This document shows, piece by piece, positions 3,875 through 61,066 of a stretch of DNA of 64,000 nucleotides. The position numbers and the translations under genes were made by a program. Where the stretch lies: IMG/VR virus record IMGVR_UViG_3300025713_000004; one strand, given 5' to 3'. Numbering within the stretch: position 1 is the stretch's first letter; each line of letters starts with the position of its first letter. Source of the stretch: a virus (taxonomy: Duplodnaviria; Heunggongvirae; Uroviricota; Caudoviricetes). The notes beneath the pieces are model-generated. The model saw nothing but the letters and a program-made list of their open reading frames with translations, was not told where the DNA came from and did no database searches.

Positions 3875-6800
3875 TTAAGAGATATCTGTCCAATTTCTAT
3901 CAAAGATTAATTCATTTTTTGCTCTTGTATATGCAACATATTCTAAATTTTTTTCTTGTAAAAATTCCCAATTTTTTGTTGTTTTCATTGGTAATAAATC
4001 TGGTCTTATTATAAAGACCCTATTTGCTTCAAGACCCTTTATTTTATGTATTGTACTTAAGCAAATTCCTTGAATTTCATCACTAAAAATTAAACCAATT
4101 TTATTTTTTAAATCAACAATACTATTTGATAATTTTGCTAAAAAAAGTAATGTTGTTACTTTATCTTCTAATGTAACATAACCACTATGTTCATTTGGGT
4201 TTAAAATACCTTCCTTTTTTAATTCTTTTCTATATTTAATTAATTCTCTATCCCAAAAAAGAATTAAATTGTCAATAGATTTAATATCACCAATTAATTC
4301 AATTAACTGAACACCAATATCAGAACCTTTCACAATTGCTTTTTTTTCTTGTTCTAAAAATTCAAAAAATAATTTAATTAATGGTATTGTTGTTCTACAT
4401 AAAACAAAATCACCACTTTCTGCTTCTTTTAAAACATTACCATCCCTTACAATACCATCAGGTGCATTGGGTAGTGCTTTTATATCAGGTACAATTTCTT
4501 GTGCTTTTTTTATTACATTTTTTGAACATCTGAATGACGTTGATAATGGTAGTGTTTTAGTATTTGGGAATTTACTAAACCATTCAAACGCTTTTTCATC
4601 TGCTGCATTAAATCCATATATACAATTATGTGTTAATATATTATCAGCAACATATGTTTCGTATTTATCAATTTCTAAAGAATAAACTAAACCAGAATAT
4701 TTTTCATATTTTAATTCATATATTTTTTGAATGTTGTGCAAATTTGCATTTAAACTGCAAATTTGCATTAAATCTGGAATAATATTAATTGCATATATTT
4801 CTAAAAAATTTTGATTATAATCCATATTCCAATTAGAATTCCATATCGGGTAGTTTGAATTTTTATTAAAATCATTAAATATTTTATCTTTATTTGCTAA
4901 ATAATAATTAGCATCTTTATATGCATAATACAAAGAATAGTACGATTTTAAAATCCAAATTTTATTAACATCACTTTTATTCTTAAAAATTTTAAAAAAA
5001 TCAATCTCATTTCTTATTGTGAATATACGTATGTGTTGAGTTTCATCCATCAATTCAAACAAACACAATACAAATTGTAATTGTTTTGTTTTTTTTATTT
5101 TAACCAAACATTTATGTTCTGGTGTATATTTAGATTCACATCCTCTTGAAATTATTTTTATTAAATTTCCATTATAATACCTACAACCAATATTGTTAAT
5201 TTTACTTTTAATAAAGGAATTACTTTTTCTATCGTAAGAAATAATTAAATCACCAACATTTAAATTTTCAATATCCTTTTCTGTATTATCATTCATTAAT
5301 ATTTTTGTTCCTTTAGGTTGACATTGATAATAATCACCAACAGATATTAATCTACCTATATATTTACCAGTAGTTTTATCTTTTTTTATTAATTTTTCTA
5401 CAATTTTTATTTGACAACGATTTAAATCTTGAACTTCATCAATAAAAATATAATCTTGAGGAAACATCCAAATACTACTATCTATTGCTGGTAAATATAT
5501 CATATCAATAAAATCATAATTTTTTCTATCAATTGTTGATTCTTCTAATATTTTTAATATTCTTTTAATATCTTTATTTTCTTTAATTGGTATATTATAT
5601 TTTTCAGCAATATTTGGAATAAATTCTGAATTTGTTGTTAATGTTAATCTACATAAATTAACCATTTTTTTTATATTATTTAAATATAAAGAAATATCAT
5701 CGTTATCATCAAATTCATCGTTTAATTTCCAATTTTTTGATTTTGATTGTATTATTTTATCAATTTTAAATTCATCGAATTGTATTTTATCACCATATTT
5801 TCTTTTAATTGCAGACGTACCTAAACCATAAGTTGTATAACATCTAACATATTCGGGTAATTTTGTTTTTAATTCTTCTTGTATGTGTTTATTGAACGCT
5901 AAAAACATAATAGATTTATCTTTAGGTAATAATTTTACTGCATCAACTATGGTTGAAGTATTGTGTGTGATTGTAAAATCACCCAATAAAAATCTACCAT
6001 TACCATTTAAAGTAAATCCAAAATATAAACCTTGTGATATAATATTTTCTTTTATTTTAAAAGAAAATAAATTATTGTAATTTGTTTTTTGTTTTCTTTT
6101 ATATACTAAAGGTAATATGCTAGTATTTCCATTAATGTCAATTTTCCAAAAAATGTTATTTCGAAAAGAAAATATCTTTTTCTCTTTATATATAAAACCT
6201 AAACTTTCACATAAAAATTTCAAATTAACTATTTTCCTTTTTGAAATTATTGTTAGTTTGGATGTCCTGTTTTTTTTATTATAATAAACATCAAAAATAC
6301 CCGCCAAGATTTTTTTTCTATTTTCAATAGAATTTATTAGATATTTGTCTGGTATTGATAAATGAATATTCTTTTTGTTTTTATCAATATTAAAAATAAT
6401 ACACTTTTGAAAATCATCGGAATAAAAACCCTTTTCATATTTTTTATTTAAACAAACACTTGTTTTATTTAAAACAAAAAAAGAATTATCTTTTAACTCC
6501 AACAATTTTTCTATTATTTTTCTTGTTAACCTAAAATCGACAAATAAAAATTGTTTTATATTATTTTTTAAATTATATCCTAACCATAATCCTAATAAAT
6601 ATGGATTTATTTCTGTTTTATTTTCTTGAAATTCAACAATGGATTTTTTTAATTTAATATTTTTTAAATAACCATTCCATTTTTTTGAATATTTGAGTTC
6701 ATTTAGTGGTGTATCTAACAAAATTTTAGAAATTTCATTGTAATGTGTAATTACATGAACATCATTACAAACCCAAGAATATCCTATTTCATTTTTTATT

Positions 6801-7045
6801 TTATATAGTTTACCATATCCAATATTTTTATTCAATACTTTACGAGGCGATGAATCATCACCCATTAAAAAATCACCAATTTTTATATCTTGAACCCTTT
6901 TTATTGTTCCATCATACATCAATACTGGTGTATCATATCCAAGACATTTACCTGTACCAGCATATGCTTTTATTAAAATATTTTCAGGTCTTTTTTTTGT
7001 AAATAAAAATATTCTTTCTTGTTCTTTTGTTGGTTTATTAATCAT
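3875..7045 (-). CDS. SF1 DNA helicase (UvrD/PcrA/Rep-like) precursor interrupted by two inteins
   Basis: The extein sequence reconstructs a UvrD-family helicase. Motif I is AYAGTGK|T (Walker A), split after Lys. Motif Ia is TSTIVDAV. Motif II is IFIDEVQDLN (DExx). Motif III is VGDYYQ|CIYGFNAAD (compare GDxxQxIYxFRGA), split before Cys. Each break is occupied by an intein-like insert that starts with Cys and ends with ...THN followed by T or C. Confidence 0.8.
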   Translation of the reverse strand: MINKPTKEQERIFLFTKKRPENILIKAYAGTGKCLGYDTPVLMYDGTIKRVQDIKIGDFLMGDDSSPRKVLNKNIGYGKLYKIKNEIGYSWVCNDVHVITHYNEISKILLDTPLNELKYSKKWNGYLKNIKLKKSIVEFQENKTEINPYLLGLWLGYNLKNNIKQFLFVDFRLTRKIIEKLLELKDNSFFVLNKTSVCLNKKYEKGFYSDDFQKCIIFNIDKNKKNIHLSIPDKYLINSIENRKKILAGIFDVYYNKKNRTSKLTIISKRKIVNLKFLCESLGFIYKEKKIFSFRNNIFWKIDINGNTSILPLVYKRKQKTNYNNLFSFKIKENIISQGLYFGFTLNGNGRFLLGDFTITHNTSTIVDAVKLLPKDKSIMFLAFNKHIQEELKTKLPEYVRCYTTYGLGTSAIKRKYGDKIQFDEFKIDKIIQSKSKNWKLNDEFDDNDDISLYLNNIKKMVNLCRLTLTTNSEFIPNIAEKYNIPIKENKDIKRILKILEESTIDRKNYDFIDMIYLPAIDSSIWMFPQDYIFIDEVQDLNRCQIKIVEKLIKKDKTTGKYIGRLISVGDYYQCQPKGTKILMNDNTEKDIENLNVGDLIISYDRKSNSFIKSKINNIGCRYYNGNLIKIISRGCESKYTPEHKCLVKIKKTKQLQFVLCLFELMDETQHIRIFTIRNEIDFFKIFKNKSDVNKIWILKSYYSLYYAYKDANYYLANKDKIFNDFNKNSNYPIWNSNWNMDYNQNFLEIYAINIIPDLMQICSLNANLHNIQKIYELKYEKYSGLVYSLEIDKYETYVADNILTHNCIYGFNAADEKAFEWFSKFPNTKTLPLSTSFRCSKNVIKKAQEIVPDIKALPNAPDGIVRDGNVLKEAESGDFVLCRTTIPLIKLFFEFLEQEKKAIVKGSDIGVQLIELIGDIKSIDNLILFWDRELIKYRKELKKEGILNPNEHSGYVTLEDKVTTLLFLAKLSNSIVDLKNKIGLIFSDEIQGICLSTIHKIKGLEANRVFIIRPDLLPMKTTKNWEFLQEKNLEYVAYTRAKNELIFDRNWTDIS
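4625..5323 (-). other. Intein 2 (233 aa) in helicase motif III
   Basis: The insert begins CQPKGTKILM and ends ADNILTHN, followed by the +1 Cys of CIYGFNAAD. Removing it restores the UvrD motif III GDYYQ-CIYGF. Cys-rich stretches (GCRYYNGN...GCESKYTPEHKC) suggest a small embedded nuclease or zinc module. Confidence 0.65.
5960..6946 (-). other. Intein 1 (329 aa) in the helicase P-loop, carrying a LAGLIDADG homing endonuclease
   Basis: The insert starts CLGYDTPVLM (intein block A: Cys, four residues, Thr, any residue, a hydrophobic) and ends FTITHN immediately before the extein Thr that completes GTGKT. It contains two LAGLIDADG-type motifs (PYLLGLWLGYN, which is PI-SceI-like LLGLWIGDG, and KILAGIFDVYYN). 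Confidence 0.75.
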
Positions 7046-7526
7046 TTGTAGAAATCCAATTATTGTTTAAAATCCCATTTTTTAATTTATATGTTTTCAT
7101 TTCATTAAGAACCAAAACAGTTAATCCTTCTTTTCTTTCAAAAATTTTATTGTTATAATATATATATTTCATATCTAAATTATACAATTCTTCAATATTT
7201 TCCACCTGTATGTGATAATTTGAATTCAAAGAAAATGCAATATCTCCTTTATCTTTCATATTATTCCATAAAATTTTTGCAATTTCATCACTTATTTGTC
7301 CTAATAGTTTAATAGTATTATTCATGTGTTTAATTGCATTTTCAGAAAACTTATCATTCTTTTCAACATATATTTTTTCCAATAAATATCTTGTTAATTC
7401 TATTGCAAAAAATCTATCTTCTGGATTATTTTCATAATCATTTGATAAATCCACACAAGGTCTACCATTTTCATTTAATGTAATATCATATTCAATATTA
7501 AACATAATAAAAATAATATAATGCAA
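7038..7526 (-). CDS. hypothetical protein
   Basis: A 162-aa ORF overlaps the helicase start by 8 nt (operonic). It has no recognisable motifs. Confidence 0.4.
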   Translation of the reverse strand: MHYIIFIMFNIEYDITLNENGRPCVDLSNDYENNPEDRFFAIELTRYLLEKIYVEKNDKFSENAIKHMNNTIKLLGQISDEIAKILWNNMKDKGDIAFSLNSNYHIQVENIEELYNLDMKYIYYNNKIFERKEGLTVLVLNEMKTYKLKNGILNNNWISTND

Positions 7527-10408: not shown

Positions 10409-11479
10409 TTACTTTTTTTGGTCTTTAGATAATCCAACAAACAATTCAAAATTTATTTTAGAATGTGATTGATAATTTACCAATTCAAAATCATCAATTG
10501 TTAAATTTGTTATATCTTCAAGTGTGTTTAAATTTTTATTAATTTTCATTTTCGGTAATTCAAAGGGCTTTCTTTTTGTTTGATTTTTAATATTTTCAAT
10601 ATGATTAAGATAAATATGTGTACATCCACCAATCCATATAGCAACACTTGGAATCATATTACATGCTTTTGCCATTAACATTAATAATAAACTCATTGAT
10701 GCTAAATTATATGGAACACCAAGCGCAACATCACATGAACGTTGATACATGTTTAAATCAAGATAAAATTTGGGTATGTTATTTGTTTCCAATAAATCTA
10801 AATTTGTTTCAAATAACATTTTTGGTAATTTTAATTCTTTTACTGCATATTTAATGCGTTCTTTTTTCGTTAATGGTCTTACAATAAAATGATAAAGTAA
10901 ATGACAAGGTGGTAATGCCATGTTATTAAAATCAGATTTATTCCAAGCATTTATAATATGATAACGACTATATGGATTATTTTTTAAACCATCAATAACA
11001 TCTTTAACTTGGTCAATACCATTTTGATTTCTCCATTGATAACCATAAACTTTATCCAAATCACCATATGTATATGTTACATATCTTTCATATGGATGTT
11101 CTTTAGTTGGGTTTGGGTTATTAACTTTTGTTTTTTTTCCTCTTTTTACATTATCAATAAATTCATCAAAAGATATTATAGGTGCGCCTAATTTAACATA
11201 TTTATCATTATACCACCTATAGGCATCATCATTCCATATGTTAACATTATTATTAACTAAATATTTAATATTGGTATCACCACGTAAAAACCATAATAAT
11301 TCATGTACAATACCCTTCCAATACATTTTTTTTGTTGTTAGTAATGGAAATCCGTTTTTCAAATCCATTTTTATAGAACTTTTTGAAATTTCTAAAGTGT
11401 TTGGCATATTAGCCCTACCACTTTCTTTTTCAACACCATTTTTTAAAATATTATTAACTAAATTTATATATTGTTTCAT
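10409..11479 (-). CDS. thyA: thymidylate synthase (ThyA family, dUMP-specific residues, with ~90 extra aa of insertions)
   Basis: It starts MKQYINLV...FPLLTTKK as E. coli ThyA starts MKQYLEL...FPLVTTK. The conserved blocks are HELLWFLRGDTN, GDLDKVYGYQWR, RYHIINAWN, the catalytic ALPPCH, and YQRSCDVALGVPYNLAS. The Asp/Asn pair in that last block is the dUMP-specifying pair, not the dCMP-hydroxymethylase pair. A final block is GGCTHIYLNH. Large inserts make it 356 aa. Confidence 0.85.
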   Translation of the reverse strand: MKQYINLVNNILKNGVEKESGRANMPNTLEISKSSIKMDLKNGFPLLTTKKMYWKGIVHELLWFLRGDTNIKYLVNNNVNIWNDDAYRWYNDKYVKLGAPIISFDEFIDNVKRGKKTKVNNPNPTKEHPYERYVTYTYGDLDKVYGYQWRNQNGIDQVKDVIDGLKNNPYSRYHIINAWNKSDFNNMALPPCHLLYHFIVRPLTKKERIKYAVKELKLPKMLFETNLDLLETNNIPKFYLDLNMYQRSCDVALGVPYNLASMSLLLMLMAKACNMIPSVAIWIGGCTHIYLNHIENIKNQTKRKPFELPKMKINKNLNTLEDITNLTIDDFELVNYQSHSKINFELFVGLSKDQKK

Positions 11480-22161: not shown

Positions 22162-24915
22162 ATGGGAAATTTTGTATTCACATCTCCAGGTGTAAAATTT
22201 AAAGAACGTGATTTAACTTTTGTGACACGTAATGTAGGAATAACAACATTGGGTTTAGTTGGCGAAACTATGAAAGGACCTGCTTTTGAACCTGTTTATA
22301 TTGAAGATAAACAACAATTTAAGGAAATATTTGGAAACCAATCAACCAAAAGAATGGATGGTAATTTACAATACCAATTACCCTATGTTGCTAATGCATA
22401 TTTAAACGAATCAAATCAACTATGGGTTACCAGAGTATTGGGTTTAAGTGGTTATGATGCGGGAAATGCTTGGATGTTAACATTAAGTGCTGGATTAGAC
22501 CCTGATAGTATTAATATTGTATCAACAATTACTGATAATACAAGTTTAACTGATAATACTTATTATGGTCATAATATCTATTTTAATGGACAAACTGGTA
22601 CAATAAAAAGTGGTTATACAAAAAATAATATTAATAACACATTTTCACAAACCGTATATGATTATTATGTTGAAGATTATCAAGAAGGTGGTGATTCTGG
22701 TATTCTATATACTGCAACCACTTACACAGGTAAATCATACATCAACTATGAAAATATGGTATTGGCAATAATTAGAAGTAATGGTGATTCTAAAATTCCT
22801 ATTAATGAACCACAAAAAACAAAATTTTATACAAAAAATCTTAAAATAAAGAATAATAAAACATTATTTGATATTGGTGATTTATATGGAAGATTTGATA
22901 TTGAAGTTGTGTTTGAAGAAAATGGTATAGATAAAACTGAAACATATACGGTTTCATTAAATCCTGATGATGCTAGTTTTCTACCAAATGTTATTGGTAA
23001 TAAACCAAAAAGTAAAAAAACAAAAATTTGGGTACAAGAAGTATATCCTGAATTGATGAAAAAACTAAAAACTGATGATTTAGGATATGGTATTAATACT
23101 CAAGTAATAACAGGTAGTTCAACTAATTTTACTGATAGTTTTAATTCTCAATTTCGAACACCAGAAACCCCTTGGGTAGTATCACAAGTTAAGGGTAATG
23201 TAGTTGATAGATTATTTAAATTTATCAGTATTAGTGATGGTAATGCTGCTAATGAAGAAATAAAAATTTCAATTGAAAATATAGACCCAACAAGTTTAAC
23301 ATTTGATGTAATAATTCGTAGTTTTTATGATACTGATGATAATGTTAATATTCTTAAATCATTCATTAAATGTAGTATGATTAAAGAATCAAACAACTAT
23401 ATTGGTAAAAAAATTGGTACTATTGATGGTGAATATCAATTAAAAAATAATTATATTATGGTTGAAATTGCTGATAATATTTCTGATGGAGTATTTCCTG
23501 CTGGATTTGAAGGGTATTATTTAAATGATTATAGCACAAAATCAACAGGGGATAATACAACAACAGGTATTTCACCAACAATATTTTATAAAAGGTCATA
23601 TTTAGTAAGAGAAGATGTAAAAAAAGCATATTTAGGTATTTCAGAAAAAGGATATGGTACAAACAATGGATTTAATCAAAATATGTTTAACTATAATGGT
23701 TATTTTGAATCAAGTCCATATGTTACTGGATTTACTAAATCTAAAGGATTTCATATGGATATAACTGCTACTGCCATAACCAATACTTCATTTGTTGGTG
23801 AATTTGATTGTGGTATGGATGTTTTTCAAACATATAAAGACATTGATAATCCTAACAATAAATATAATAATATTAAAACAAGAAAATTTACTTTAGTTCC
23901 CGCAGGTGGATTTGATGGTTGGGATGTTCATCGTATTTCACGTTCTAATACTGATGGATATCAACAAGGTGGCATATATAGTGGTTATCCGAACAATCCT
24001 TTATTTCCACCAACAAATGATTTTCAAGCATGGCAAATGGCAATAGATACTTTTGCTAATCCTGAAGAAGTTACCATAAATTTATTTGCAACTCCTGGTA
24101 TTAATTGGGCTGACCATCAATTATTAGTAAAAGATACAATTGAAATGATTGAAGAAAAAAGAGCAGATAGTTTATATGTTATTGATTCTCCTGATATCGG
24201 AATTGAATTTAGTGTCGGTAATAGTCGTAATGCAGATGTTGATAATGCTGAATCTTATAAAGAAGCATTAGATTTAACAGAAATAGATAGTAGTTATTCT
24301 TGTACTTATGCTCCTTGGATTCAAATTCAAGACACACAAAATATTTCTGATATTTACATTCCACCAACTGGTGAAGTTTTACGTGCAATGGCATATACTG
24401 ATAAGGTTAATTTTCCTTGGTATGCCCCTGCTGGTTTAAATCGTGGTGCAATTAATGCAAAACAACCAAAATATAAATTAAGTCTTGAAGCACGTGATAT
24501 TCTTTATAGTGGAAGAATTAATCCAATTGCATATTTTTCAGACGTTGGTACTGCAATTTTTGGTCAAAAAACATTAAAGAAAAAAGAAGGTGCGTTAGAT
24601 AGAATTAATGTTCGTAGATTACTTCTTCGAATTAAAGTTTTAATTTCTAACATTGCTGTTAGATTATTATTTGAACAAAACGACCAAGATGTTATTAACG
24701 AATTCTTGGCTAAAGCAAATCCTGCTTTAGCAGCAATAAAAAGAGAAAGAGGTTTATATGATTTTAAAATAAAAATGGATGATACTAATAATACCCCAGA
24801 AACACGTGATAGAAATGAACTATATGGTGAAATATTTTTAAAACCAACACGTACTCTTGAATATATTGGTATTACATTTACAATTACACCTTCAGGTGCA
24901 TCTTTCGAAGAATAA
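22162..24915 (+). CDS. contractile tail sheath protein (T4 gp18 family)
   Basis: The N-terminus FTSPGVKFKERDLTFV...GLVGETMKGPAFEPVYI...FKEIFGNQ follows T4 gp18 LLSPGIELKETTVQS...ALAGKFQWGPAFQ...TFGQP. The C-terminal block GRINPIAYFSDVGTAIFGQKTLKKKEGALDRINVRRLLLRIKVL matches the conserved sheath C-terminal domain (INP..F.G.G..IFGQKTL...ALDRINVRRL). At 917 aa it is a large, jumbo-type sheath. Confidence 0.85.
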   Translation: MGNFVFTSPGVKFKERDLTFVTRNVGITTLGLVGETMKGPAFEPVYIEDKQQFKEIFGNQSTKRMDGNLQYQLPYVANAYLNESNQLWVTRVLGLSGYDAGNAWMLTLSAGLDPDSINIVSTITDNTSLTDNTYYGHNIYFNGQTGTIKSGYTKNNINNTFSQTVYDYYVEDYQEGGDSGILYTATTYTGKSYINYENMVLAIIRSNGDSKIPINEPQKTKFYTKNLKIKNNKTLFDIGDLYGRFDIEVVFEENGIDKTETYTVSLNPDDASFLPNVIGNKPKSKKTKIWVQEVYPELMKKLKTDDLGYGINTQVITGSSTNFTDSFNSQFRTPETPWVVSQVKGNVVDRLFKFISISDGNAANEEIKISIENIDPTSLTFDVIIRSFYDTDDNVNILKSFIKCSMIKESNNYIGKKIGTIDGEYQLKNNYIMVEIADNISDGVFPAGFEGYYLNDYSTKSTGDNTTTGISPTIFYKRSYLVREDVKKAYLGISEKGYGTNNGFNQNMFNYNGYFESSPYVTGFTKSKGFHMDITATAITNTSFVGEFDCGMDVFQTYKDIDNPNNKYNNIKTRKFTLVPAGGFDGWDVHRISRSNTDGYQQGGIYSGYPNNPLFPPTNDFQAWQMAIDTFANPEEVTINLFATPGINWADHQLLVKDTIEMIEEKRADSLYVIDSPDIGIEFSVGNSRNADVDNAESYKEALDLTEIDSSYSCTYAPWIQIQDTQNISDIYIPPTGEVLRAMAYTDKVNFPWYAPAGLNRGAINAKQPKYKLSLEARDILYSGRINPIAYFSDVGTAIFGQKTLKKKEGALDRINVRRLLLRIKVLISNIAVRLLFEQNDQDVINEFLAKANPALAAIKRERGLYDFKIKMDDTNNTPETRDRNELYGEIFLKPTRTLEYIGITFTITPSGASFEE

Positions 24916-41336: not shown

Positions 41337-43451
41337 ATGAAAAATAATATTGTTGTTGTTTTTTCATCCCATTTATCTGAAGAAGAAAATCAGAAATTTA
41401 TTAAACATATTAACAATACCATTGGTAAAGTTAAACATGATGTAATTTGCTATTCAAATTTTAATCAGTATAGTCTTACTGAAATTTATAATAAAGCGAT
41501 TAAAGAACATTATAAAAAGGATTCTATATTTGTTGTTTGTCATAATGATATTATTATAGGTACGAGAGATTGGGGTAAATTATTGCTTTTTAAATTTAAT
41601 CAAACAAATTTTGATATTATTGGTGTTGCAGGTAGTACCTATTTACCTGAATCCTGTGTATGGTGGGAAGATAGAACAAAAATGGTTGGTATTGTTGACC
41701 ATACGGATGGATATTCTATTTGGACAAGTGAATATTCTAAAGAAAAAAAGGGTGTGATTACACCAGTTGTTTTGGTTGATGGTCTTTTTATTTCTTTTAA
41801 TCCCGATACGATTGTACATAGATTTGATGAAGAATTTAAAGGGTTTCATCTTTATGATTTATCATTTTGTATTCCAAATTGGCTTGATGGTTGTGATATT
41901 GGTGTAACAACAGATATTAGAATATTACATAAATCAATTGGTGAAACAAATCAACAATGGGATGAAAATAGAAAACAATTAGCGGAAAAATATTATGATG
42001 AATTACCAATAACAATATTACCAGAATATAATGATTTAATTGTTAATTTATTAACAGAGCCAAAAGTAACAGTAATTATTCCAACAAAAAATAATTTAAA
42101 GTATATTAAAAATAATATTTATTCTTGGAATAATGTTGTTAATTATGATAATTATGAAATAATTATTGCTGATACGGGTAGTGATGAAAGTGTAATTAAG
42201 GAATATGATTCATTTCTTTCAAATAAAATTAAATTAATAAAATATAATTATTATAATTTTGCTAAAATAAATAATGATGTAGTAAAAAATCATACATCTA
42301 ATGATACAGAATTAATACTATTTTGTAATGATGATATAAAATTATTAAATGATAGTCTTAGTAGATGTATTGAAATTTATAATCAAAATAAAGATACTGT
42401 TGGTACTATTGGTATTAGATTACATTATGGGGATGGTAGTATTCAACATAATGGGATTTTAATGTATAAAGAAAATAATATTTTAAGACTTACACATAAA
42501 GATATTAGAAAAACTGAAAATTATTTTACTGGTATTAATTACGATTCATTGGGAAATACTGGTGGGTTTATGTTAATTAAAAAAGATTTATTTTTAAAAT
42601 ATGGTGGGTTTAATGAAAACTATATTGAATGTTTGGAAGATGTTGAATTAAATATTAAATGTAAATACGATGGATTAAAAAATATTACAGTTAGTGATGC
42701 TGTTGCAATTCATTATGAATCTATAAGTAGAAATAAAATTTTGGGTGGTAATGAAAGATTTATGGTTGATTATAATAGATTGATGAATTTTGTAAACGAT
42801 TTTGAAAATAAAGAAAGAGAAATTAAAAGAAATAAAGAAAATAAAAATCCAATTATTAATATTATAACAAGAACACACGATAGACCTAAACATTTTAAAA
42901 TATGTAGAGATTCAATTTTAAATCAAACAAATAAAAATATTAATCATATTGTTGGTAGTGATATTGATTGTGATTATTGTGATGATTATATTAAATTAGA
43001 ATTACAAGAAGTTCAACCAAAACCAGATAATTTGGCATCATATCCTGCACCTTGGAATTTACACATAAATGTTTTACATAACTATGTAAAAGAAGGTTGG
43101 ATTATGTATTTAGATGATGATGATATGTTTATTAATGAAAATTCTTTAAGTATAATAGTGAATCATATTGAAAATGAAGATGAATTATTGCTTTGGAGAG
43201 TAAACATTAATGGAAGAATAGTTCCAGATGATAATGGTTTTGGAAAAATTATTGCAGGGAATATATCTGGTATTGGTTTTATGTTTCATTCGAAATATTT
43301 ACCAATTGATTGGGTGTCTTGGAATTTTGGTGATTATAGGGCTATTAAACAATTAGAAAATAAAAAATTAAAACAGAAATGGATTAACCAAGTGTTAACA
43401 AAAACACAAGGTGTTCCAAATTTAGGAAAAAAACCAAATGATTATGAATAG
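41337..43451 (+). CDS. multidomain glycosyltransferase (two or three GT2-like modules)
   Basis: The 704-aa protein has repeated GT2 N-terminal signatures (VVVFSSHLSEEEN...; VTVIIPTKNNLKYIKNNIYSW...IIIADTGSDES; IINIITRTHDRPKHFKICRDSILNQT) and DxD-like segments (CNDDI, LDDDDMFI). Confidence 0.6.
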   Translation: MKNNIVVVFSSHLSEEENQKFIKHINNTIGKVKHDVICYSNFNQYSLTEIYNKAIKEHYKKDSIFVVCHNDIIIGTRDWGKLLLFKFNQTNFDIIGVAGSTYLPESCVWWEDRTKMVGIVDHTDGYSIWTSEYSKEKKGVITPVVLVDGLFISFNPDTIVHRFDEEFKGFHLYDLSFCIPNWLDGCDIGVTTDIRILHKSIGETNQQWDENRKQLAEKYYDELPITILPEYNDLIVNLLTEPKVTVIIPTKNNLKYIKNNIYSWNNVVNYDNYEIIIADTGSDESVIKEYDSFLSNKIKLIKYNYYNFAKINNDVVKNHTSNDTELILFCNDDIKLLNDSLSRCIEIYNQNKDTVGTIGIRLHYGDGSIQHNGILMYKENNILRLTHKDIRKTENYFTGINYDSLGNTGGFMLIKKDLFLKYGGFNENYIECLEDVELNIKCKYDGLKNITVSDAVAIHYESISRNKILGGNERFMVDYNRLMNFVNDFENKEREIKRNKENKNPIINIITRTHDRPKHFKICRDSILNQTNKNINHIVGSDIDCDYCDDYIKLELQEVQPKPDNLASYPAPWNLHINVLHNYVKEGWIMYLDDDDMFINENSLSIIVNHIENEDELLLWRVNINGRIVPDDNGFGKIIAGNISGIGFMFHSKYLPIDWVSWNFGDYRAIKQLENKKLKQKWINQVLTKTQGVPNLGKKPNDYE

Positions 43452-44145
43452 TAAAGTAGATATTTACATTGCATCTTTATGGCGACAAGGACATGTTGTA
43501 AATACAGTAAATTCAATATTGCTTAATCCAGAAGCGGAAAAAATTACTATATCATGTAATTTGTATACTGATGAACAATGGGGATATGTTAATAATGAGT
43601 TGAGAAATTCAAAAATTAAATTACATAGAACAAACAATGAAAAATGTAGTAATGAAAAATTAAAATATATAAATAACGGTAATAGCCCATATATTGCGTT
43701 AATTGATGATGATTTAATTTATCCTTCGGATTATTTAAAAAAATTAATTGATGGTTGTGAAAAATATCAAGGACACGTATCATTACATGGGGTAATATTA
43801 AATCCAAGACCAATTAGGTCATATTATCATAATAGAATAGTATATAGAGGTTTAGGAAATGTGAATGAAGATGTTAAAGTAGATATTATTGGTAGTGGAA
43901 CATTATTATTTAAACGTGAATGGTATGATGATTTGGATGAATGGTATGATAGGTGTAGTAATGTATCAATGGATGATATTTATGTTAGTTTTTTTGCAAG
44001 AAGTAAAAACATTCCAAGATATGTTTTAGCACATAAAGAAGGATATTTAAAACATAAAGAAATAAAAAAAGAAGATTATTATGTTTTTGATAAATATGTA
44101 AATAATGATAAGGTACAAACAGATTTTATAAATATTTATTTTTAA
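43438..44145 (+). CDS. hypothetical protein (possible glycosyltransferase-like)
   Basis: The 235-aa protein has IALIDDDLIYP, resembling a DxD sugar-transferase motif. The call is weak. Confidence 0.35.
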   Translation: MIMNSKVDIYIASLWRQGHVVNTVNSILLNPEAEKITISCNLYTDEQWGYVNNELRNSKIKLHRTNNEKCSNEKLKYINNGNSPYIALIDDDLIYPSDYLKKLIDGCEKYQGHVSLHGVILNPRPIRSYYHNRIVYRGLGNVNEDVKVDIIGSGTLLFKREWYDDLDEWYDRCSNVSMDDIYVSFFARSKNIPRYVLAHKEGYLKHKEIKKEDYYVFDKYVNNDKVQTDFINIYF

Positions 44146-44155
44146 TATAATTAAC

Positions 44156-44740
44156 ATGCCTTTTGAAAGTAAAAAATATTGGATTGATAGGTATGCAACA
44201 CATGGTGGTATTTCTGGTGTTGGTTCTTATGGAATATATGCCGAATATAAAGCAAATATTATAAATAAATTTTTTATTGATTATAATATTGAAACTGTTT
44301 TGGAATTGGGATGTGGTGATGGTAATCAATTATCTTATTTAAAACCAAAAAAATACTATGGTTATGATATTAGTGATTTTGTAATTAGTAAAAATAAAAA
44401 AAGATTTAATGGCTCTAATTATTTTTTTACTACAAATTTAGATGAATTGAAATCAAAAAAATTTGATGTGGTTTTATCTTTGGATGTTATTTACCATTTA
44501 ATAGAAGATAATAATTATTATGAATATATGAAAAATTTATTTTTCTTTTCTAAAAAATATGTAATTATATATTCAACAAATAATAATAATAATTGGTTGT
44601 CTGAACATTGTAAAAATAGAATTTTTATGAATGATATTTCAAATAATTTTAAATTAATTAATAAAATTGATAATCCATTAAAAGGAGAAAATACACAATC
44701 TGATTTTTATTTTTTTAAAAATGAAAAGAACGAGATATAA
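44156..44740 (+). CDS. class I SAM-dependent methyltransferase
   Basis: Motif I VLELGCGDGNQLSYL and the acidic post-I residue (YGYDISD) fit the Rossmann methyltransferase fold. Confidence 0.6.
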   Translation: MPFESKKYWIDRYATHGGISGVGSYGIYAEYKANIINKFFIDYNIETVLELGCGDGNQLSYLKPKKYYGYDISDFVISKNKKRFNGSNYFFTTNLDELKSKKFDVVLSLDVIYHLIEDNNYYEYMKNLFFFSKKYVIIYSTNNNNNWLSEHCKNRIFMNDISNNFKLINKIDNPLKGENTQSDFYFFKNEKNEI

Positions 44741-45626
44741 CATAAAAAAACAAATAAAGAAAAAGATTAATAATACTATAACTAAGAAAAATATAGTAAT
44801 AAATAATCTAAATAAAAAAAATAACATTAATTTAAATTCTGATAAAATATATGAAAATAAAAAATCAGAATCAAAAAATAATTTTCCTAATATTGTTGAA
44901 AATAAAAAAATAGAATCGAAAAACGATATTATTAACATAATTGAAAATAAAATAAAAAACTATGATTTGATTGATAATTTAAATCCAAAAATATTATTTT
45001 TAATTTCAAATTATGAAAGAGAAGAAATGTTAAAACAATTAATTTCAGAAATTAAAACAATAAATGCGGATTATATTATATTTGATGATGTATCATCATA
45101 TAAAATTGATGACCCGAATGTGATTATTAATGATTATCATAGAGGAAAGGGTGATTATTGGAAAACTTTTGATGATATGTTTAAATATTGCAAGGAAAAT
45201 TATTATGATATATATGTTTTTACACCTAATGATTTTTTAAATTATAAATTTGATAAAATTATAACATATGGTGTTAATTTAAGAAATTATGAATATATAT
45301 TTAATATTATAAATGATGGTAGAAAATCTTGTTGGGTTGGTATTGAAGAAAAAATTTTAAATAATAAAATAAAATTATCGTTTTTTACTGATTGTGCATT
45401 TTTTACTAATTATAAAACACTTAGTTTATTAGAATTTAAAATGAATAAAATTAATTTAAAACCCATTCCAAATCGAGGGTCTTTTGTTGGAGAACAACTT
45501 ACAAGAAGATTGGTAAACCTAAAAGTGCCAATATTTACACCTATTAAAAGTTTTGCATATCATGGTGACCATGAATCATTAATGAATCCTGAAGTTAGAA
45601 AAATTCATAAAATAATTTCATTATAA
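44721..45626 (+). CDS. hypothetical protein
   Basis: A 301-aa ORF with an Asn/Lys-rich N-terminus and a structured C-terminal half. Confidence 0.4.
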   Translation: MKRTRYNIKKQIKKKINNTITKKNIVINNLNKKNNINLNSDKIYENKKSESKNNFPNIVENKKIESKNDIINIIENKIKNYDLIDNLNPKILFLISNYEREEMLKQLISEIKTINADYIIFDDVSSYKIDDPNVIINDYHRGKGDYWKTFDDMFKYCKENYYDIYVFTPNDFLNYKFDKIITYGVNLRNYEYIFNIINDGRKSCWVGIEEKILNNKIKLSFFTDCAFFTNYKTLSLLEFKMNKINLKPIPNRGSFVGEQLTRRLVNLKVPIFTPIKSFAYHGDHESLMNPEVRKIHKIISL

Positions 45627-45631
45627 AAAGA

Positions 45632-46315
45632 ATGAATATGAAAAATAATGTTGTTATAAAAAATTTTAAATATGATAATTTTCAATATTCATTTAAAGGA
45701 GTTGAAAATGAACATTTTTTTAAACAAATACCTTGGTATGAACAAGAATTATTAGAAAATATTAGTAATTTAAATTTAAATGGTGTTTATGTTGATGTTG
45801 GTGGTAATATAGGAAATCATTCATTATTTTTTGCCAATCATTGTAATTCAACAAAATTATATATATTTGAACCAGAAAATTTTTGTTTTAACATTTTAAA
45901 TGAGAATTTATCAAAAAATTCAAAAAAACAATATGTTTTAAGAAATATTGCTTTATGGAACAAAAAAGATGAATTAAATTTAATTAAATATGAAACATAT
46001 CAAAATACTGGAATATCGAAAGTAATTGAAAAAAATAAAAACAATGACAATTTATTATTTATAATTTCAAATACATTGGATGATGAAATTTCATTAAATG
46101 AAAATGTTGTGTTGATTAAAATAGATACTGAAGGTGCTGAAAGAAAAATACTTGATGGTGGTATAAATTTAATAAAAAACAAATTACCTGTTATTATTTG
46201 TGAAGCAGCAACAAGTGAAGAATTTAAAGAAATTGATGATTTTTTAAAACCTTTGGGATATAAAACACCCACAAGAAGATTTAATGCAACACCAACATAT
46301 ATTTGGGTTTGTTAA
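45632..46315 (+). CDS. FkbM-family methyltransferase
   Basis: GVYVDVGGNIGNHSLFFANH is the FkbM-domain signature (hhDhGAN.G..S..F). Confidence 0.6.
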   Translation: MNMKNNVVIKNFKYDNFQYSFKGVENEHFFKQIPWYEQELLENISNLNLNGVYVDVGGNIGNHSLFFANHCNSTKLYIFEPENFCFNILNENLSKNSKKQYVLRNIALWNKKDELNLIKYETYQNTGISKVIEKNKNNDNLLFIISNTLDDEISLNENVVLIKIDTEGAERKILDGGINLIKNKLPVIICEAATSEEFKEIDDFLKPLGYKTPTRRFNATPTYIWVC

Positions 46316-46345
46316 ACTATATTTATTATGTAAAAAAATAATATT

Positions 46346-47101
46346 ATGGATAAAGTATTAGTTATTGGTGATAGTTGTATTGATGAATTTCAATATGGTG
46401 TTTGTGAAAGAATTAGTCCTGAAGCACCAGTGCCTATTTTTAAGAGTTTGTATGGTGTTCAATCTAGTGGTATGGCAAGTAATGTTAAAAATAATTTAGA
46501 AGGTTTAGGTATTTCGTGTGATATAATTACAAATACTATGGTAAAACCACATAAATTAAGATTTGTTGATAAAAAAACAAATCAAATGTTACTTAGGGTT
46601 GATGGTTATGATAGGATTGTTGAAAAAGCAGAAGAATATTTAGTTAATATTAATTTTAATGATTATGATGCTATTGTAATTTCAGATTATGATAAAGGTT
46701 TTCTTACTGAAAATACTATAACAAATATAACAAATAAACACAAATTAGTTTTTTTAGATAGCAAAAAAAAGTTTGGAAAATGGGCAGATGGTATAGAATT
46801 CATAAAAGTTAATGAAAATGAGTTTAATAATAATTCAAAGTATTTAATTGATGATTTTAAGGGTGAATTAATTATTACCTTGGGGGATGAAGGTGCTAGA
46901 CATAATGATGTTTTATATCATGTTGAACAACAATATGCTATTATTAATTTAGCGGGTGCTGGTGATACTTTTTTTGCAGGTTTTGTGGCAAATTATTTAG
47001 AATTTGGAAATATTCCAAAAGCAATTAATTTTGCAAATAAATGTGCTTCTTGGGTTGTTTCCCAAAAAGGTGTTGGTGTTATAAATAAAAGTAATATATG
47101 A
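46346..47101 (+). CDS. sugar kinase, D-glycero-beta-D-manno-heptose-7-phosphate kinase-like (HldE/RfaE domain I homologue)
   Basis: The N-terminus VLVIGDSCIDEFQYGVCERISPEAPVPIF matches the HldE kinase start (ILVVGDVMLDRYWYG...RISPEAPVPVV). NLAGAGDTFFAGFV is the ribokinase/pfkB anion-hole motif. Confidence 0.65.
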   Translation: MDKVLVIGDSCIDEFQYGVCERISPEAPVPIFKSLYGVQSSGMASNVKNNLEGLGISCDIITNTMVKPHKLRFVDKKTNQMLLRVDGYDRIVEKAEEYLVNINFNDYDAIVISDYDKGFLTENTITNITNKHKLVFLDSKKKFGKWADGIEFIKVNENEFNNNSKYLIDDFKGELIITLGDEGARHNDVLYHVEQQYAIINLAGAGDTFFAGFVANYLEFGNIPKAINFANKCASWVVSQKGVGVINKSNI

Positions 47102-47481
47102 TAAAAATTTTAAACATAAATGATTTGGATTTTGAATCTATTGTTGAGAAAAAATGGGGTCGTGAAATAATACTACATAATGATGAAAATTATTGTGGTA
47201 AAATACTTCAATTTAAATCTGGTTCTAAATTTAGTATGCATTACCATTTAAAAAAAGAAGAAACCTTTTATGTAAATAAAGGAAAATTAATATTAAATTA
47301 TATTGATACTAATGATGCTACTGAATATTCAAGAGAACTTAATATTGGTGATGTTATTCATATTGAACAGGGTGACCCACATCAAATAATAGCATTGGAA
47401 GATAGTGAAATTATTGAAATATCAACACAACATTTTGATTTTGATAGTTATAGAATAAGAAAGGGTGATAGTCAATCATGA
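47098..47481 (+). CDS. cupin-domain protein (mannose-6-phosphate-isomerase-like small barrel)
   Basis: KWGREIILHNDENYCGKILQFKSGSKFSMHYHLKKEETFYVNKGKL is the cupin_2 pattern (W G.E...... KhL.h.PG..hS.Q.H..R.E.WhVh.G). It may supply the isomerase step of the heptose pathway. The call is uncertain. Confidence 0.45.
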   Translation: MIKILNINDLDFESIVEKKWGREIILHNDENYCGKILQFKSGSKFSMHYHLKKEETFYVNKGKLILNYIDTNDATEYSRELNIGDVIHIEQGDPHQIIALEDSEIIEISTQHFDFDSYRIRKGDSQS

Positions 47482-47768
47482 TAATTTATGTAGATATTGA
47501 TAATACAATATGTTATACGAATGGAAATGATTATGTTAATTCAATACCAAATTTTGAAAACATCAAAAAGGTAAATAAACTATATGATGATGGTAATATA
47601 ATAATATATTGGACAGGAAGGGGTATGAAAAGTGGTTTAGATTGGACTAATTTAACAAAAAAACAACTATCTGATTGGGGTTGTAAATATAATGAATTAA
47701 TAATGAATAATAAACCAGCCTTTGATTTATTAATAGATGATAAGGCAATAAAAATTGATGAATTATGA
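47478..47768 (+). CDS. compact HAD-family phosphatase (GmhB-like candidate)
   Basis: HAD motif I is IYVDIDNT, motif II WTGR, motif III K(PAFD) and motif IV LLIDD. It sits between the kinase and adenylyltransferase genes, as the D,D-heptose-1,7-bisphosphate phosphatase does in the pathway. Confidence 0.45.
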   Translation: MIIYVDIDNTICYTNGNDYVNSIPNFENIKKVNKLYDDGNIIIYWTGRGMKSGLDWTNLTKKQLSDWGCKYNELIMNNKPAFDLLIDDKAIKIDEL

Positions 47769-48190
47769 GAGTTTGGGTAAATGGTTGTTTTGATATTCTT
47801 CATAGTGGTCATATTGATTTATTGTGGTTTGCAAAAAGATATGGTGTTACTAAAAAGAAACAAAATAAATTAAATAAACTATTTGTTGGTTTAGATAGTG
47901 ATGAACGTATAAAAGAATTAAAAGGGGATAATCGTCCAATAAATGATTTAGAAACAAGAGTTAAAATAATGTCAAGTTTAAATATGGTTGATGTTGTTGC
48001 TATATTTAATACGGATGATGAATTAAAAAATTATATAAAGAACTTAAAAATTGATTGTATGGTTGTTGGTGATGAATATAAAAATAAAACAGTTATTGGT
48101 TCTGAGTATTCAAAATATGGTGTTGTTTATTATCCAAAAACAAACGGAAAATCAACAACCGATATTATTAATAAAATAAAGAAATTATGA
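47765..48190 (+). CDS. D-beta-D-heptose-1-phosphate adenylyltransferase-like cytidylyltransferase-fold protein (HldE/RfaE domain II homologue)
   Basis: VWVNGCFDILHSGHIDLLWFAKRYG...LFVGLDSDERIKELKGDNRPINDLETRVKIMSSLNMVDVV matches RfaE domain II (VFTNGCFDILHAGHVSYL...[41 protein letters not shown]). Confidence 0.7.
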   Translation: MRVWVNGCFDILHSGHIDLLWFAKRYGVTKKKQNKLNKLFVGLDSDERIKELKGDNRPINDLETRVKIMSSLNMVDVVAIFNTDDELKNYIKNLKIDCMVVGDEYKNKTVIGSEYSKYGVVYYPKTNGKSTTDIINKIKKL

Positions 48191-49101
48191 TTGTAATTAC
48201 TGGTGGTGATGGTTTTATTGGTAGAAATTTAGTGTTTGAATTTTCTATAACGAATAATAAATTACCAATTAAAATTCTTGATACTAAAAGAGAAAGTTTA
48301 AATGATATTTATATTTGGTTAACAAATAATGCTAGTAGTATTAAAACTATTATTCATTTGGGTGCAATTACAGATACTACATTAGAAAATAGTGAACTTT
48401 TTTATGAATATAATTTAGGTATGTCTATGTTTATTTGGAAACTATGTTCTAAATATGATATAACATTAATTTATGCTAGTTCTGCTGCAACGTATGGTGA
48501 TGGTAGTTATGGTTTTGATGATAAATCGGATATTTGGAAATTAAAACCATTGAATTTATATGGTTGGTCAAAACATAATTTTGATTTATGGTCACAATTA
48601 GAACATAAATCACCTAAGAATTGGTATGGTTTGAAGTTTTTTAATGTGTATGGTAAATTTGAAGAATATAAACTTAGAATGTCTTCAATGATATATCAAA
48701 TATATAATCAAATTATTGATAATGGGTATGTAAAATTATTTAAATCAAACACATTTAATATTTTGGATGGTGAACAGAAAAGAGATTTTATTCATATTGA
48801 TGATGTTGTAAATGTTATAATATTTTTAATAAATAGATTACCAAAATCAGGTATTTATAATGTTGGAACAGGAATTGCAAGGTCGTTTAATGATATTGCT
48901 AATATTATTTTTCACAATTTAGGAATACCACCTAATATTAAGTATATTGATATTCCAGATAGTATATCAGATAAATATCAAAATTTTACAGAAGCAAAAA
49001 TTGATAAATTAAAAGAAATTGGTTATTCTATTAAATTTAAGAGTTTAGAATATGGAATTAGTGAATATTTAAAATATTTAAATTATTTAAAAAAATGGTA
49101 A
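48187..49101 (+). CDS. hldD: ADP-L-glycero-D-manno-heptose-6-epimerase (HldD/RfaD-like short-chain dehydrogenase)
   Basis: The N-terminus MIVITGGDGFIGRNLV matches HldD MIIVTGGAGFIGSNIV. YGWSKHNFD is the catalytic YxxxK region (HldD YGYSKFLFD). The 304-aa length is typical. Confidence 0.7.
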   Translation: MIVITGGDGFIGRNLVFEFSITNNKLPIKILDTKRESLNDIYIWLTNNASSIKTIIHLGAITDTTLENSELFYEYNLGMSMFIWKLCSKYDITLIYASSAATYGDGSYGFDDKSDIWKLKPLNLYGWSKHNFDLWSQLEHKSPKNWYGLKFFNVYGKFEEYKLRMSSMIYQIYNQIIDNGYVKLFKSNTFNILDGEQKRDFIHIDDVVNVIIFLINRLPKSGIYNVGTGIARSFNDIANIIFHNLGIPPNIKYIDIPDSISDKYQNFTEAKIDKLKEIGYSIKFKSLEYGISEYLKYLNYLKKW

Positions 49102-49736
49102 AGATTGGTAATATTATTTATGAAGATGAATTGGTAAATCATATTATGGTTGATTATGTTAACTACATAAAAGAACCAATTGAATATTCAATTATTGATA
49201 AATCTTTACCAACATTATACGTTGGATGGAATTTTATGAAATCAACAAATCAAGATAATGAAATTATACAAAATGCCGATATTCTAAAAAAGAAAATAAT
49301 AACCAATGAACTGTATTGGGAATTTTCTTTTAATGAGAATAAATCATCACACATTAAAGGTATTGAGAAATTTATAAATTTATTACCAGAATTTTATTTT
49401 TCACCAAAATATATGTATGTTGATTTAGACCCTGTTTTTTTCCATTTAAGAAATGTTGAAGATTTAATGGATGTATTACCAAAAACAATAGATTTGTTTT
49501 ATCAGTATAAAGATGAAATAATTTATGTATTATTTGATAATAAAATATGGGGTATTAATTTAAATATTTATAAGTTTTTTCAATTTGATGTTGAATTATT
49601 AAATACTTCTATTTCTAATAGATGTTATAAGTATGGTTATTATGATGTTGATGGTGAAATTTATAATAAATATAAAAAACTACTTCCTGATTTTACCAAA
49701 TTAAAAAGATATATAGTTACAATATTATCAAAATGA
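49095..49736 (+). CDS. hypothetical protein
   Basis: A 213-aa ORF, last in the plus-strand sugar block. It could be a transferase but has no motif I recognise. Confidence 0.4.
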   Translation: MVKIGNIIYEDELVNHIMVDYVNYIKEPIEYSIIDKSLPTLYVGWNFMKSTNQDNEIIQNADILKKKIITNELYWEFSFNENKSSHIKGIEKFINLLPEFYFSPKYMYVDLDPVFFHLRNVEDLMDVLPKTIDLFYQYKDEIIYVLFDNKIWGINLNIYKFFQFDVELLNTSISNRCYKYGYYDVDGEIYNKYKKLLPDFTKLKRYIVTILSK

Positions 49737-60850: not shown

Positions 60851-60923
60851 GTACAATTAACTCAATGGATAGAGTGTTCATTCACAATATGAAATATTGT
60901 TGGTTCGATTCCAACATTGTAAA
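60851..60923 (+). tRNA. tRNA (73 nt), anticodon uncertain
   Basis: It folds as a cloverleaf: acceptor gtacaat/attgtaa with a G1.A72 mismatch; D-stem actc/gagt with a GG-containing loop; a perfect anticodon stem ttcat/atgaa with loop tcacaat; T-arm gttgg-ttcgatt-ccaac. The loop reads ACA at positions 34-36 but has C instead of the near-universal U33, so the identity is unsure. Confidence 0.45.
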
Positions 60924-60956
60924 AAAATAACAAACAAATTTTCTGTTTTTTGAAAT

Positions 60957-61042
60957 TGCGGTGTGGAGAAATGGTATCTCGCCTGCCTCATAAGCACGGA
61001 GTCCCTATTGGGTTTAAATGGGTTCGATTCCCATCACCGCTA
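60957..61042 (+). tRNA. tRNA-like gene with a CAU anticodon loop and a long (class II-like) variable arm
   Basis: Acceptor (t)gcggtg/caccgc(t). D-stem gaga/tctc. Anticodon stem cctgc/gcacg with one C.C mismatch and loop cTCATAa, giving anticodon CAT. A 19-nt variable region holds a ccc/ggg mini-helix. T-arm atggg-ttcgatt-cccat. A long variable arm combined with a CAU anticodon is atypical. Confidence 0.45.
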
Positions 61043-61066
61043 CAAAAAAACGTTCTTTATATAAAT

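Follow-up and report, generated by a model that had tools for sequence, protein, structure and literature searches.

A putative ADP-heptose cassette in an uncultured AT-rich myovirus, with a cupin and a minimal HAD phosphatase in the places of GmhA and GmhB

The five-gene block at 46346-49101

ADP-heptose is a building block of the lipopolysaccharide (LPS) core of Gram-negative bacteria and of heptosylated adhesins, and the innate immune system of animals responds to it as a potent signal. Genes that probably direct its synthesis lie at positions 46346-49101 of a 64,000-nucleotide stretch of tailed-virus DNA (IMG/VR record IMGVR_UViG_3300025713_000004), the whole of which is referred to here as the window. 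Five genes follow one another there on the plus strand: a shortened pfkB-family kinase of 251 amino acids (aa) resembling domain I of HldE (46346..47101), a metal-binding cupin of 127 aa that is a candidate sedoheptulose-7-phosphate isomerase (47098..47481), a minimal, cap-less HAD phosphatase of 96 aa proposed to be a heptose-1,7-bisphosphate 7-phosphatase (47478..47768), a nucleotidyltransferase of 141 aa resembling HldC and domain II of HldE and predicted to be a heptose-1-phosphate adenylyltransferase (47765..48190), and a 304-aa HldD, the ADP-glyceromanno-heptose 6-epimerase (48187..49101). We consider it probable that the five form one translationally coupled unit that takes sedoheptulose-7-phosphate to ADP-L-glycero-beta-D-manno-heptose without help from the host.

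An earlier reading of the window, made from its sequence only, had described five consecutive, tightly packed genes with 4-nt overlaps, and that description stood: there are five plus-strand open reading frames, and a start/stop overlap of the form ATGA was present at every one of the four internal junctions. The G+C content was uniformly low across the window, at about 21-29%, and at third codon positions (GC3) the five genes lay between 0.09 and 0.13, the same as the tail sheath gene and other core genes of the phage. Since its GC3 equals that of the core genes, the cassette is neither recently inserted nor a contaminant, and the overlaps together with the core-like GC3 argue that its genes are real, translationally coupled and long resident in the genome. 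A scan for promoters and terminators in this AT-rich window returned 98 promoter-like sites against 103 expected.

Kinase, nucleotidyltransferase and epimerase

The top NCBIfam model for the kinase was rfaE_dom_I (TIGR02198), at 121.7 bits, which led the model of any non-heptose kinase by about 78 bits (fructoselysine kinase scored 43.5 bits and ribokinase 35.6); in Pfam it matched PfkB with 63.9 bits, and among the PHROGs family 8133 with E=3e-70. It is about 65 aa shorter than domain I of HldE, and its motifs ERISPEAPVP and AGAGDTF line up with those of Escherichia coli HldE and are invariant in eight viral kinases. Its top match in the PDB was a D-beta-D-heptose 7-phosphate kinase from Burkholderia (4e84).

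For the nucleotidyltransferase the top NCBIfam model was rfaE_dom_II (TIGR02199), at 109.2 bits versus 60.1 for glycerol-3-phosphate cytidylyltransferase, with CTP_transf_like at 56.9 bits and a match to PHROG 7878. Two motifs, FDILHSGH (the HxGH signature) and the C-terminal KSTTDIINKI (STTxII), line up with domain II of the E. coli enzyme, and the PDB matches included HldC of Burkholderia (5x9q). It is presumed to use ATP and to yield ADP-heptose, a presumption drawn solely from its coupling to HldD, which acts on ADP-heptose.

The epimerase scored above the equivalog cut-off of TIGR02197 (313.4 vs 274.6 bits; GalE reached only 61.8), its top four PDB matches were all HldD (4ej0, 1eq2, 2x6t and 3sxp), and it matched PHROG 540. 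Aligned with E. coli RfaD, and in the E. coli numbering, the SDR triad (S116, Y140 and K144) and K178 were invariant, as was the GxxGxxG site for NAD(P); Y140 and K178 we take to be catalytic residues, K178 being the second catalytic base. The epimerase is a true HldD. The naming of these three genes by the sequence-only reading was thus borne out, the best models being those of the two HldE domains and of HldD with the motifs and catalytic residues kept, and the profile searches did not move the kinase to the ribokinases, the nucleotidyltransferase to the glycerol-3-phosphate cytidylyltransferases or the epimerase to the generic sugar epimerases.

The minimal HAD phosphatase and the cupin

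The 96-aa protein carries HAD motif I as DIDNT at residues 6-10 (DxDxT) and an acidic LIDD near its C-terminus. It matched a PDB entry named as a capsule biosynthesis protein (9iqw, E=8e-14), on which the literature searched held nothing relevant, and also 1xpj; it matched PHROG 1238 with E=5e-26, and its NCBIfam matches were weak only (TIGR01689, 30 bits). It matched no GmhB model, the HAD-SF-IIIA score being 13.1 against a cut-off of 44.6 bits, and E. coli GmhB used as a tblastn query had no match in the window. The protein is accordingly classed as a minimal HAD phosphatase, GmhB-like in its presumed role only and not an orthologue. Of the earlier description as a compact, GmhB-like HAD phosphatase, the compact HAD was upheld and orthology to GmhB was not, the nearest relatives being TIGR01689 and 9iqw.

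The remark that the canonical SIS-type GmhA is missing, with a cupin in its place, was confirmed and could be extended. No relative of E. coli GmhA was detectable in the window, and GmhA was likewise missing from 164 related viral loci, from the complete genomes of cassette-bearing cyanophages and from the approximately 35 GenBank phage records discussed below. A true GmhA together with an annotated heptose kinase occurred only in Caulobacter phage Cr30, whose kinase showed no detectable relationship to the one in the window; IMG/VR loci anchored on GmhA resembled host genes at the edges of prophages.

The cupin was above the Pfam cut-offs for Cupin_2 (33.4 bits, cut-off 27.2) and Cupin_1 (35, cut-off 22), and its AlphaFold2 (AF2) model was an all-beta barrel with a predicted local distance difference test score (pLDDT) of 92.5. 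Across its family a His-His-Glu-His metal site (H48, H50, E55 and H95) is invariant, as are the basic residues K18, K35, K53 and R119. It was below the cut-offs for phosphomannose isomerase type II (PF01050, 18.6 vs 23.6 bits; GMP_PMI, 13.7 vs 373) and for the WbuC/CapF-type model TIGR04366 (26.4 vs 42 bits); its WbuC, CapF and Polysacc_synt_C scores were all under the family cut-offs, and a profile of the cupin family (A1) matched CapF at only E=0.004. In the PDB, searches by sequence and by profile alike gave generic cupin matches only, and among the PHROGs it matched 7851. The protein is a member of a separate family of metal-binding cupins, and the company that its gene keeps says more about its function than homology does.

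Occurrence of the cassette in viruses and cells

The cupin family was found on at least 545 IMG/VR contigs and the kinase on at least 582, and in cells the cupin was rare, with 26 loci in about 185,000 species genomes. Cupin loci flanked by 5 kb or more on both sides numbered 47; of these, 43 held the nucleotidyltransferase, 39 the kinase, 33 the HAD protein and 24 an SDR enzyme, and none held GmhA. Counted instead from the kinase, 52 loci had full flanks and 32 of them held the cupin; the HAD protein was found in 22 of those 32 and in only one of the 20 without it (Fisher p=7e-6), and the cupin was also associated with the nucleotidyltransferase (p=8e-4), though not with the SDR epimerase (p=0.15).

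Among GenBank phages, the records listed by tblastn numbered 34 for the kinase and 35 for the cupin and were essentially the same ones. The carriers were T4-like cyanomyoviruses and viral contigs from marine single cells, among them P-SSM2, P-SSM5, S-SM2, P-TIM68, S-CAM1, S-CAM3, S-SSM7, S-T4, Bellamy and SynMITS9220M01. The five families adjoin one another in P-SSM2, and all five window proteins matched PSSM2_309-313 by tblastn at 28-47% identity. Parts of this had been noticed before: 24 "LPS genes" were reported in P-SSM2 by Sullivan et al. (PMC1079782), T4-GCs 304, 305, 307 and 308 were seen to co-occur in three phages, their function not being known there (PMC3037559), heptose-related genes were listed in the genome announcement for SynMITS9220M01 (PMC7378029), and rfaE-like genes were mentioned in pelagimyophages (PMC7029224). 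The labels attached to two of the families are at odds with their sequences, since RefSeq cyanophage records and PHROGs name the HAD protein (PHROG 1238) a phosphoheptose isomerase and the cupin (PHROG 7851) a cysteine dioxygenase; the mislabelled pair lies at 6716-7397 of the P-SSM2 locus (L001), and the cyanophage genomes in question hold no SIS-type isomerase. The LPS of marine Synechococcus is without heptose (PMC4515613), and therefore the cyanophage copies cannot simply top up a pathway of the host.

The same families were also found in contigs of giant-virus type, i.e., those with GVMAG names or carrying an Rpb2-type RNA polymerase subunit. There, many of the cupin homologues are HAD-cupin fusions of 221-231 aa, which stand beside a fused, HldE-like gene for kinase and nucleotidyltransferase (455 aa), as at L003 (8001-8666) and L050 (9638-10333 and 10348-11718), with P0034, P0038, P0106 and P0111 as examples of the proteins. 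The cassette is a mobile module common to marine cyanomyoviruses and, as fused genes, to giant viruses. The literature searched yielded no heptose synthesis in giant viruses and no cupin heptose isomerase.

Genes of the heptosyltransferase family Glyco_transf_9 (GT9) occurred near some related modules. In one group of phage contigs (L006-L009), nucleotidyltransferase, cupin, kinase and epimerase lie about 900 bp from such a gene, and at two loci without cupin or HAD protein it lies directly upstream of the kinase and nucleotidyltransferase (L165, 8471-9622; L198, 8454-9611); the GT9 protein of L165 weakly matched the N-terminal domain of the protein heptosyltransferase TibC. On their downstream side, these last two loci encode multidomain proteins of 1155-1490 aa that start with a second cytidylyltransferase-like domain.

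Among the cellular homologues of the cupin (L102, L106, L108, L116 and L120), those from Terriglobia, Bryobacteraceae and Methanosarcinales were 47-53% identical over residues 16-127, and one from a complete Planctomycetales genome was 44% identical over residues 15-123. At L106 a UDP-GlcNAc 2-epimerase gene adjoins the homologue, and at L116 the homologue has an N-terminal extension of about 85 aa.

The sugar island and the rest of the window

The island that the cassette closes (41337-49101) lies between tail and baseplate genes and a gene at 49095-49736, and its other genes are all on the plus strand. The first encodes a three-domain GT-A glycosyltransferase of 704 aa (41337..43451), with Glyco_tranf_2_5 at residues 8-219, Glycos_transf_2 at residues 245-421 and a C-terminal third that weakly matches GT2, and it is followed by a GT2-family glycosyltransferase of 235 aa (43438..44145; Glycos_transf_2, 29.7 bits). 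Next are a class I S-adenosylmethionine-dependent methyltransferase of 194 aa (44156..44740), matching Methyltransf_12, _23 and _11 and, weakly, a model for pseudaminic-acid-associated methylases, and a 301-aa protein (44721..45626) that had no Pfam, PHROG or PDB sequence match and had been without annotation. Its AF2 model, with pLDDT above 90 over residues 90-300, was compared by Foldseek with known structures and matched the GT-A enzymes KfiA, ColGalT1 and heparosan synthase (E about 1e-5), which points to a glycosyltransferase of GT-A fold; the DD pair formed by D122 and D123 is invariant, and fusions of homologues to GT25 or GT2 domains occur. Its N-terminal segment of about 90 aa is a low-complexity, lysine- and asparagine-rich helix modelled with low confidence. 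The identical protein was found on more than 35 environmental contigs, the longest of 240 kb, one of which NCBI bins as "archaeon"; on many such contigs the island as a whole is the same. The last gene before the cassette is an FkbM-family methyltransferase of 227 aa (45632..46315; Methyltransf_21, 54.1 bits; TIGR01444, 96.2 bits). In total, the island holds five GT-A glycosyltransferase domains and two methyltransferases. One near-identical environmental copy of the island has its FkbM gene broken into parts of 97 aa and 102 aa (L222, 10918-11488), with the five heptose genes intact.

The downstream border is formed by a conserved core gene of the lineage for a 213-aa protein (49095..49736, plus strand), which the sequence-only reading had put forward as a possible heptosyltransferase. 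That candidate was rejected: the protein has more than 500 homologues at 57-66% identity with no domain match and no match among GenBank phages, and its gene lies outside the sugar island, downstream of islands with or without heptose genes alike. In relatives, a differing mix of sugar genes was always found upstream of its homologue, with the full heptose set in L010 and L129, kinase, HAD protein and nucleotidyltransferase only in L127, and the kinase with a GH16 domain protein in L128. Because the mixes differ in this way, the heptose genes are a variable module of a hypervariable island, and the island resembles the "host recognition cluster" described in pelagimyophages and cyanomyophages (PMC7029224).

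Among the other phage genes of the window are those for a tail sheath of 917 aa, a baseplate hub, a helicase and a DnaB-like helicase, a UvsX-like recombinase and an exonuclease. Only the C-terminal 320 aa or so of the sheath (22162-24915) are of the T4 gp18 type, with 35-39% identity to cyanophages, and its best overall match was in an uncultured phage of 484 kb. An IS607-type element lies within the phage genome, comprising a serine transposase gene (189-797; NF033518, 166.7 bits) followed by a TnpB gene (808-2076) whose product has OrfB_IS605 and Cas12f1-like TNB domains. ARAGORN reported, at 60851-61043, a tRNA-Cys with the unusual anticodon ACA and a tRNA-Met of 87 nt, which is long for tRNA-Met.

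Interpretation

Based on these genes, a route can be proposed. The cupin would isomerise sedoheptulose-7-phosphate to D-glycero-D-manno-heptose-7-phosphate, the heptose counterpart of the fructose-6-phosphate/mannose-6-phosphate reaction of other metal cupins; the pfkB kinase, by homology, would phosphorylate C1; the minimal HAD phosphatase, from its context, would take off the 7-phosphate; the HldC-like enzyme would adenylylate heptose-1-phosphate, its reaction being suggested by homology and its nucleotide by the epimerase; and HldD, with strong homology and its catalytic residues in place, would epimerise C6''. The heptose would then most likely be built into a methylated glycan, and assembly in the cytoplasm seems the natural suggestion because no flippase, polymerase or priming transferase was found in the island. 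The acceptor may be virion proteins or, as speculatively, a component of the host envelope. Glycosylation of the virion is attractive in that giant viruses, whose hosts have no LPS, share the module.

As to the first of these steps, a metal cupin can isomerise or epimerise only beside a carbonyl and, if there is no partner oxidoreductase, sedoheptulose-7-phosphate and heptose-7-phosphate are the only intermediates that bear one. We know of no heptose pathway, and of no GmhA, in the eukaryotic hosts of giant viruses. With that, the heptose-free LPS of Synechococcus and the carbonyl argument taken together, an isomerase is the simplest reading of the cupin, and we would put the chances that it is a sedoheptulose-7-phosphate isomerase at about even, with support that is comparative and short of proof. 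The sequence-only reading had called the cupin a possible isomerase and had noted its position in the gene order; the position in GmhA's place held, and the isomerase role has since gained substantial comparative support. A broader proposal, to which we give appreciable but somewhat less than even credence, is that the cupin represents an unrecognised, mainly viral isomerase family which, together with the minimal HAD phosphatase, replaces GmhA and GmhB in a self-contained route of four or five enzymes from the pentose-phosphate pathway to ADP-heptose, and that the route is used by viruses of heptose-free hosts (marine picocyanobacteria, eukaryotes and possibly the host of this phage) for heptose glycans on their own particles.

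Several observations weigh against a complete and independent pathway. The kinase and the nucleotidyltransferase fall below the equivalog-domain cut-offs of their models (345 bits for TIGR02198 and 181.5 bits for TIGR02199). The window covers only a portion of its genome, which may reach about 240 kb, and GmhA may be encoded in the remainder. With three viral GT9 proteins and E. coli WaaC and WaaF as tblastn queries, neither the window nor its close relatives yielded a GT9 gene, and the window has no other recognisable heptosyltransferase, an enzyme that the sequence-only reading had suggested seeking next to the cassette. The cupin is absent from 20 of the 52 kinase loci, at which no other isomerase is visible, and three relatives (L127, L161 and L214) hold kinase, HAD protein and nucleotidyltransferase without it; the co-occurrence counts, moreover, take no account of kinship among the contigs. 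In cells (Terriglobia, Planctomycetes, Methanosarcinales), the genes for homologues of the cupin mostly lie away from heptose genes, a point that is weak because the heptose genes of E. coli are themselves scattered. Finally, in structure and in NCBIfam scores the cupin is slightly more similar to CapF and WbuC.

That last similarity leads to the strongest of the alternatives, in which kinase, HAD phosphatase, nucleotidyltransferase and HldD make ADP-heptose, the cupin is a CapF/WbuC-like enzyme that tailors a sugar nucleotide, and heptose-7-phosphate comes from GmhA of the host or from another viral gene. We think this unlikely, though it deserves to be taken seriously. Epimerisation of the CapF type needs a keto-sugar from a partner oxidoreductase or dehydratase, and the cupin showed no association with SDR genes; at 10 of the 11 giant-virus-type loci, kinase, nucleotidyltransferase, HAD phosphatase and cupin occur with no SDR gene within 10 kb. 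In addition, the cupin is fused there to the phosphatase, an enzyme of the early pathway, the hosts of those viruses would have no GmhA to supply the substrate, and the WbuC, CapF and Polysacc_synt_C scores remain, as noted, under their cut-offs.

The literature reads the "LPS genes" of cyanophages and pelagimyophages (PMC1079782, PMC7029224) in another way, and applied to the window this would make the cassette an incomplete auxiliary set that only boosts flux in the host's own heptose pathway to the LPS core, with a host surface remodelled against superinfection and the cupin and HAD protein in unrelated or accessory roles. Viral loci with only the kinase, or only the kinase and nucleotidyltransferase, do exist. 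The reading is nonetheless improbable in our estimation: cupin and HAD protein are tightly and specifically linked to the kinase and nucleotidyltransferase, the same genes occur in viruses of heptose-free hosts, namely marine Synechococcus (PMC4515613) and eukaryotes, and lipid-carrier priming transferase, flippase and ligase are all missing from the island.

A hexose pathway, for example from fructose-6-phosphate through mannose-6-phosphate, mannose-1,6-bisphosphate and mannose-1-phosphate to ADP-mannose, could appeal to the sub-threshold scores of the kinase and nucleotidyltransferase, to weak matches of the cupin to phosphomannose isomerase and lyxose isomerase, and to the name "mannose-6-phosphate isomerase-like" that the Joint Genome Institute gives to many cupin homologues. 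It is very improbable, since the genes are translationally coupled to a true HldD, an enzyme that cannot act without the C6 stereocentre of a heptose, GT9 genes of the heptosyltransferase family lie near related modules, and the kinase keeps the heptose-kinase-specific motif RISPEAPVP.

Hypermodification of phage DNA, with heptose placed on hydroxymethylated pyrimidines, has a precedent in phage clusters of HAD/kinase, cytidylyltransferase-like and GT-B genes that put mono- or di-heptose on 5-hydroxymethylcytosine (bioRxiv 10.1101/2023.12.21.572611), and the window has a Mom-family DNA-modification domain at 2091-3299, yet it was rejected as hardly credible because the thymidylate synthase of the window is a true ThyA and not a hydroxymethylase (TIGR03284, 260.7 vs 108.35 bits), neither a C5-methyltransferase/TET pair nor a GT-B DNA glycosyltransferase nor any other supporting gene was found in the window, and the neighbouring transferases are of GT-A type and accompanied by genes of the sugar O-methyltransferase type.

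Two of the genes just named have features of their own. The 402-aa open reading frame at 2091-3299 joins the Mom-family domain (residues 27-162) to a GIY-YIG homing endonuclease of group I intron type (residues 169-397), perhaps because an endonuclease gene has invaded a Mom gene or because the Mom gene is read through into it. The 356-aa ThyA (10409-11479, minus strand) has an insertion of about 38 residues between the model-aligned residues 201 and 239.

As for what is new, the gene set described by the sequence-only reading was sustained, and its novelty was less than implied: a phage-encoded heptose pathway is already known at the level of annotation in P-SSM2 and other cyanomyoviruses, in a form that is partly wrong, and the window alone modestly adds one more lineage, that of an uncultured, AT-rich myovirus, to those known to carry the cassette. 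What the present analysis contributes is comparative evidence that the pathway is complete, with GmhA and GmhB replaced by a cupin and a minimal HAD phosphatase, a hypothesis that, from the literature searched, appears to be unpublished, and the recognition of the same module, as gene fusions, in giant viruses. Should the pathway be complete, heptose glycans would be a common viral trait independent of host LPS, and the labels "phosphoheptose isomerase" for the HAD protein and "cysteine dioxygenase" for the cupin would be wrong and set to propagate. A sedoheptulose-7-phosphate isomerase of cupin type would be a clear case of non-orthologous displacement.

Comparison with known systems

The metal-dependent cupin sugar isomerases (type II phosphomannose isomerase, the archaeal cupin phosphoglucose isomerase and D-lyxose isomerase) were compared with the window cupin, which scored under all of their family cut-offs, profile searches placing it no closer to them than to other cupins. 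It was likewise under the cut-offs for WbuC and the C-terminal cupin domain of CapF and, unlike an enzyme of that kind, it has no consistent partner that forms a keto-sugar, its genomic association being with the kinase, nucleotidyltransferase and phosphatase and not with SDR enzymes.

The five proposed steps are chemically the same as those of the bacterial pathway to ADP-L-glycero-beta-D-manno-heptose (GmhA, HldE or HldA with HldC, GmhB and HldD). HldD is orthologous in the two, and the kinase and nucleotidyltransferase are homologous to domains I and II of HldE, split as in HldA and HldC of Burkholderia. Where bacteria use a SIS-type GmhA and a HAD-IIIA GmhB, the phage has the 127-aa cupin and the 96-aa HAD protein instead, and its five genes are gathered into one overlapping operon, whereas those of E. 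coli are scattered.

The module of the giant viruses (GVMAG) has the same four activities encoded by adjacent genes, with the cupin 55-65% and the HAD protein 44-53% identical to those of the window. It differs in its pairwise gene fusions, its eukaryotic hosts and the lack of an HldD-like gene nearby, because of which its product would be the D,D form of the heptose.

A further close system is the "LPS gene" cassette of the cyanomyoviruses (T4-GC 304-308), carried by phages to which the window phage, of an uncultured lineage with 24% G+C and no close cultured relative, is not related. The order of the genes in P-SSM2 is different (nucleotidyltransferase, kinase, HAD protein and cupin, followed on the opposite strand by the epimerase), and in S-SM2 the five families are spread across a larger sugar island. 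All five families are shared, at up to 54% identity to S-SM2, and in the cyanomyoviruses, as in the window, the cassette is clustered and sits within a hypervariable region of sugar genes.

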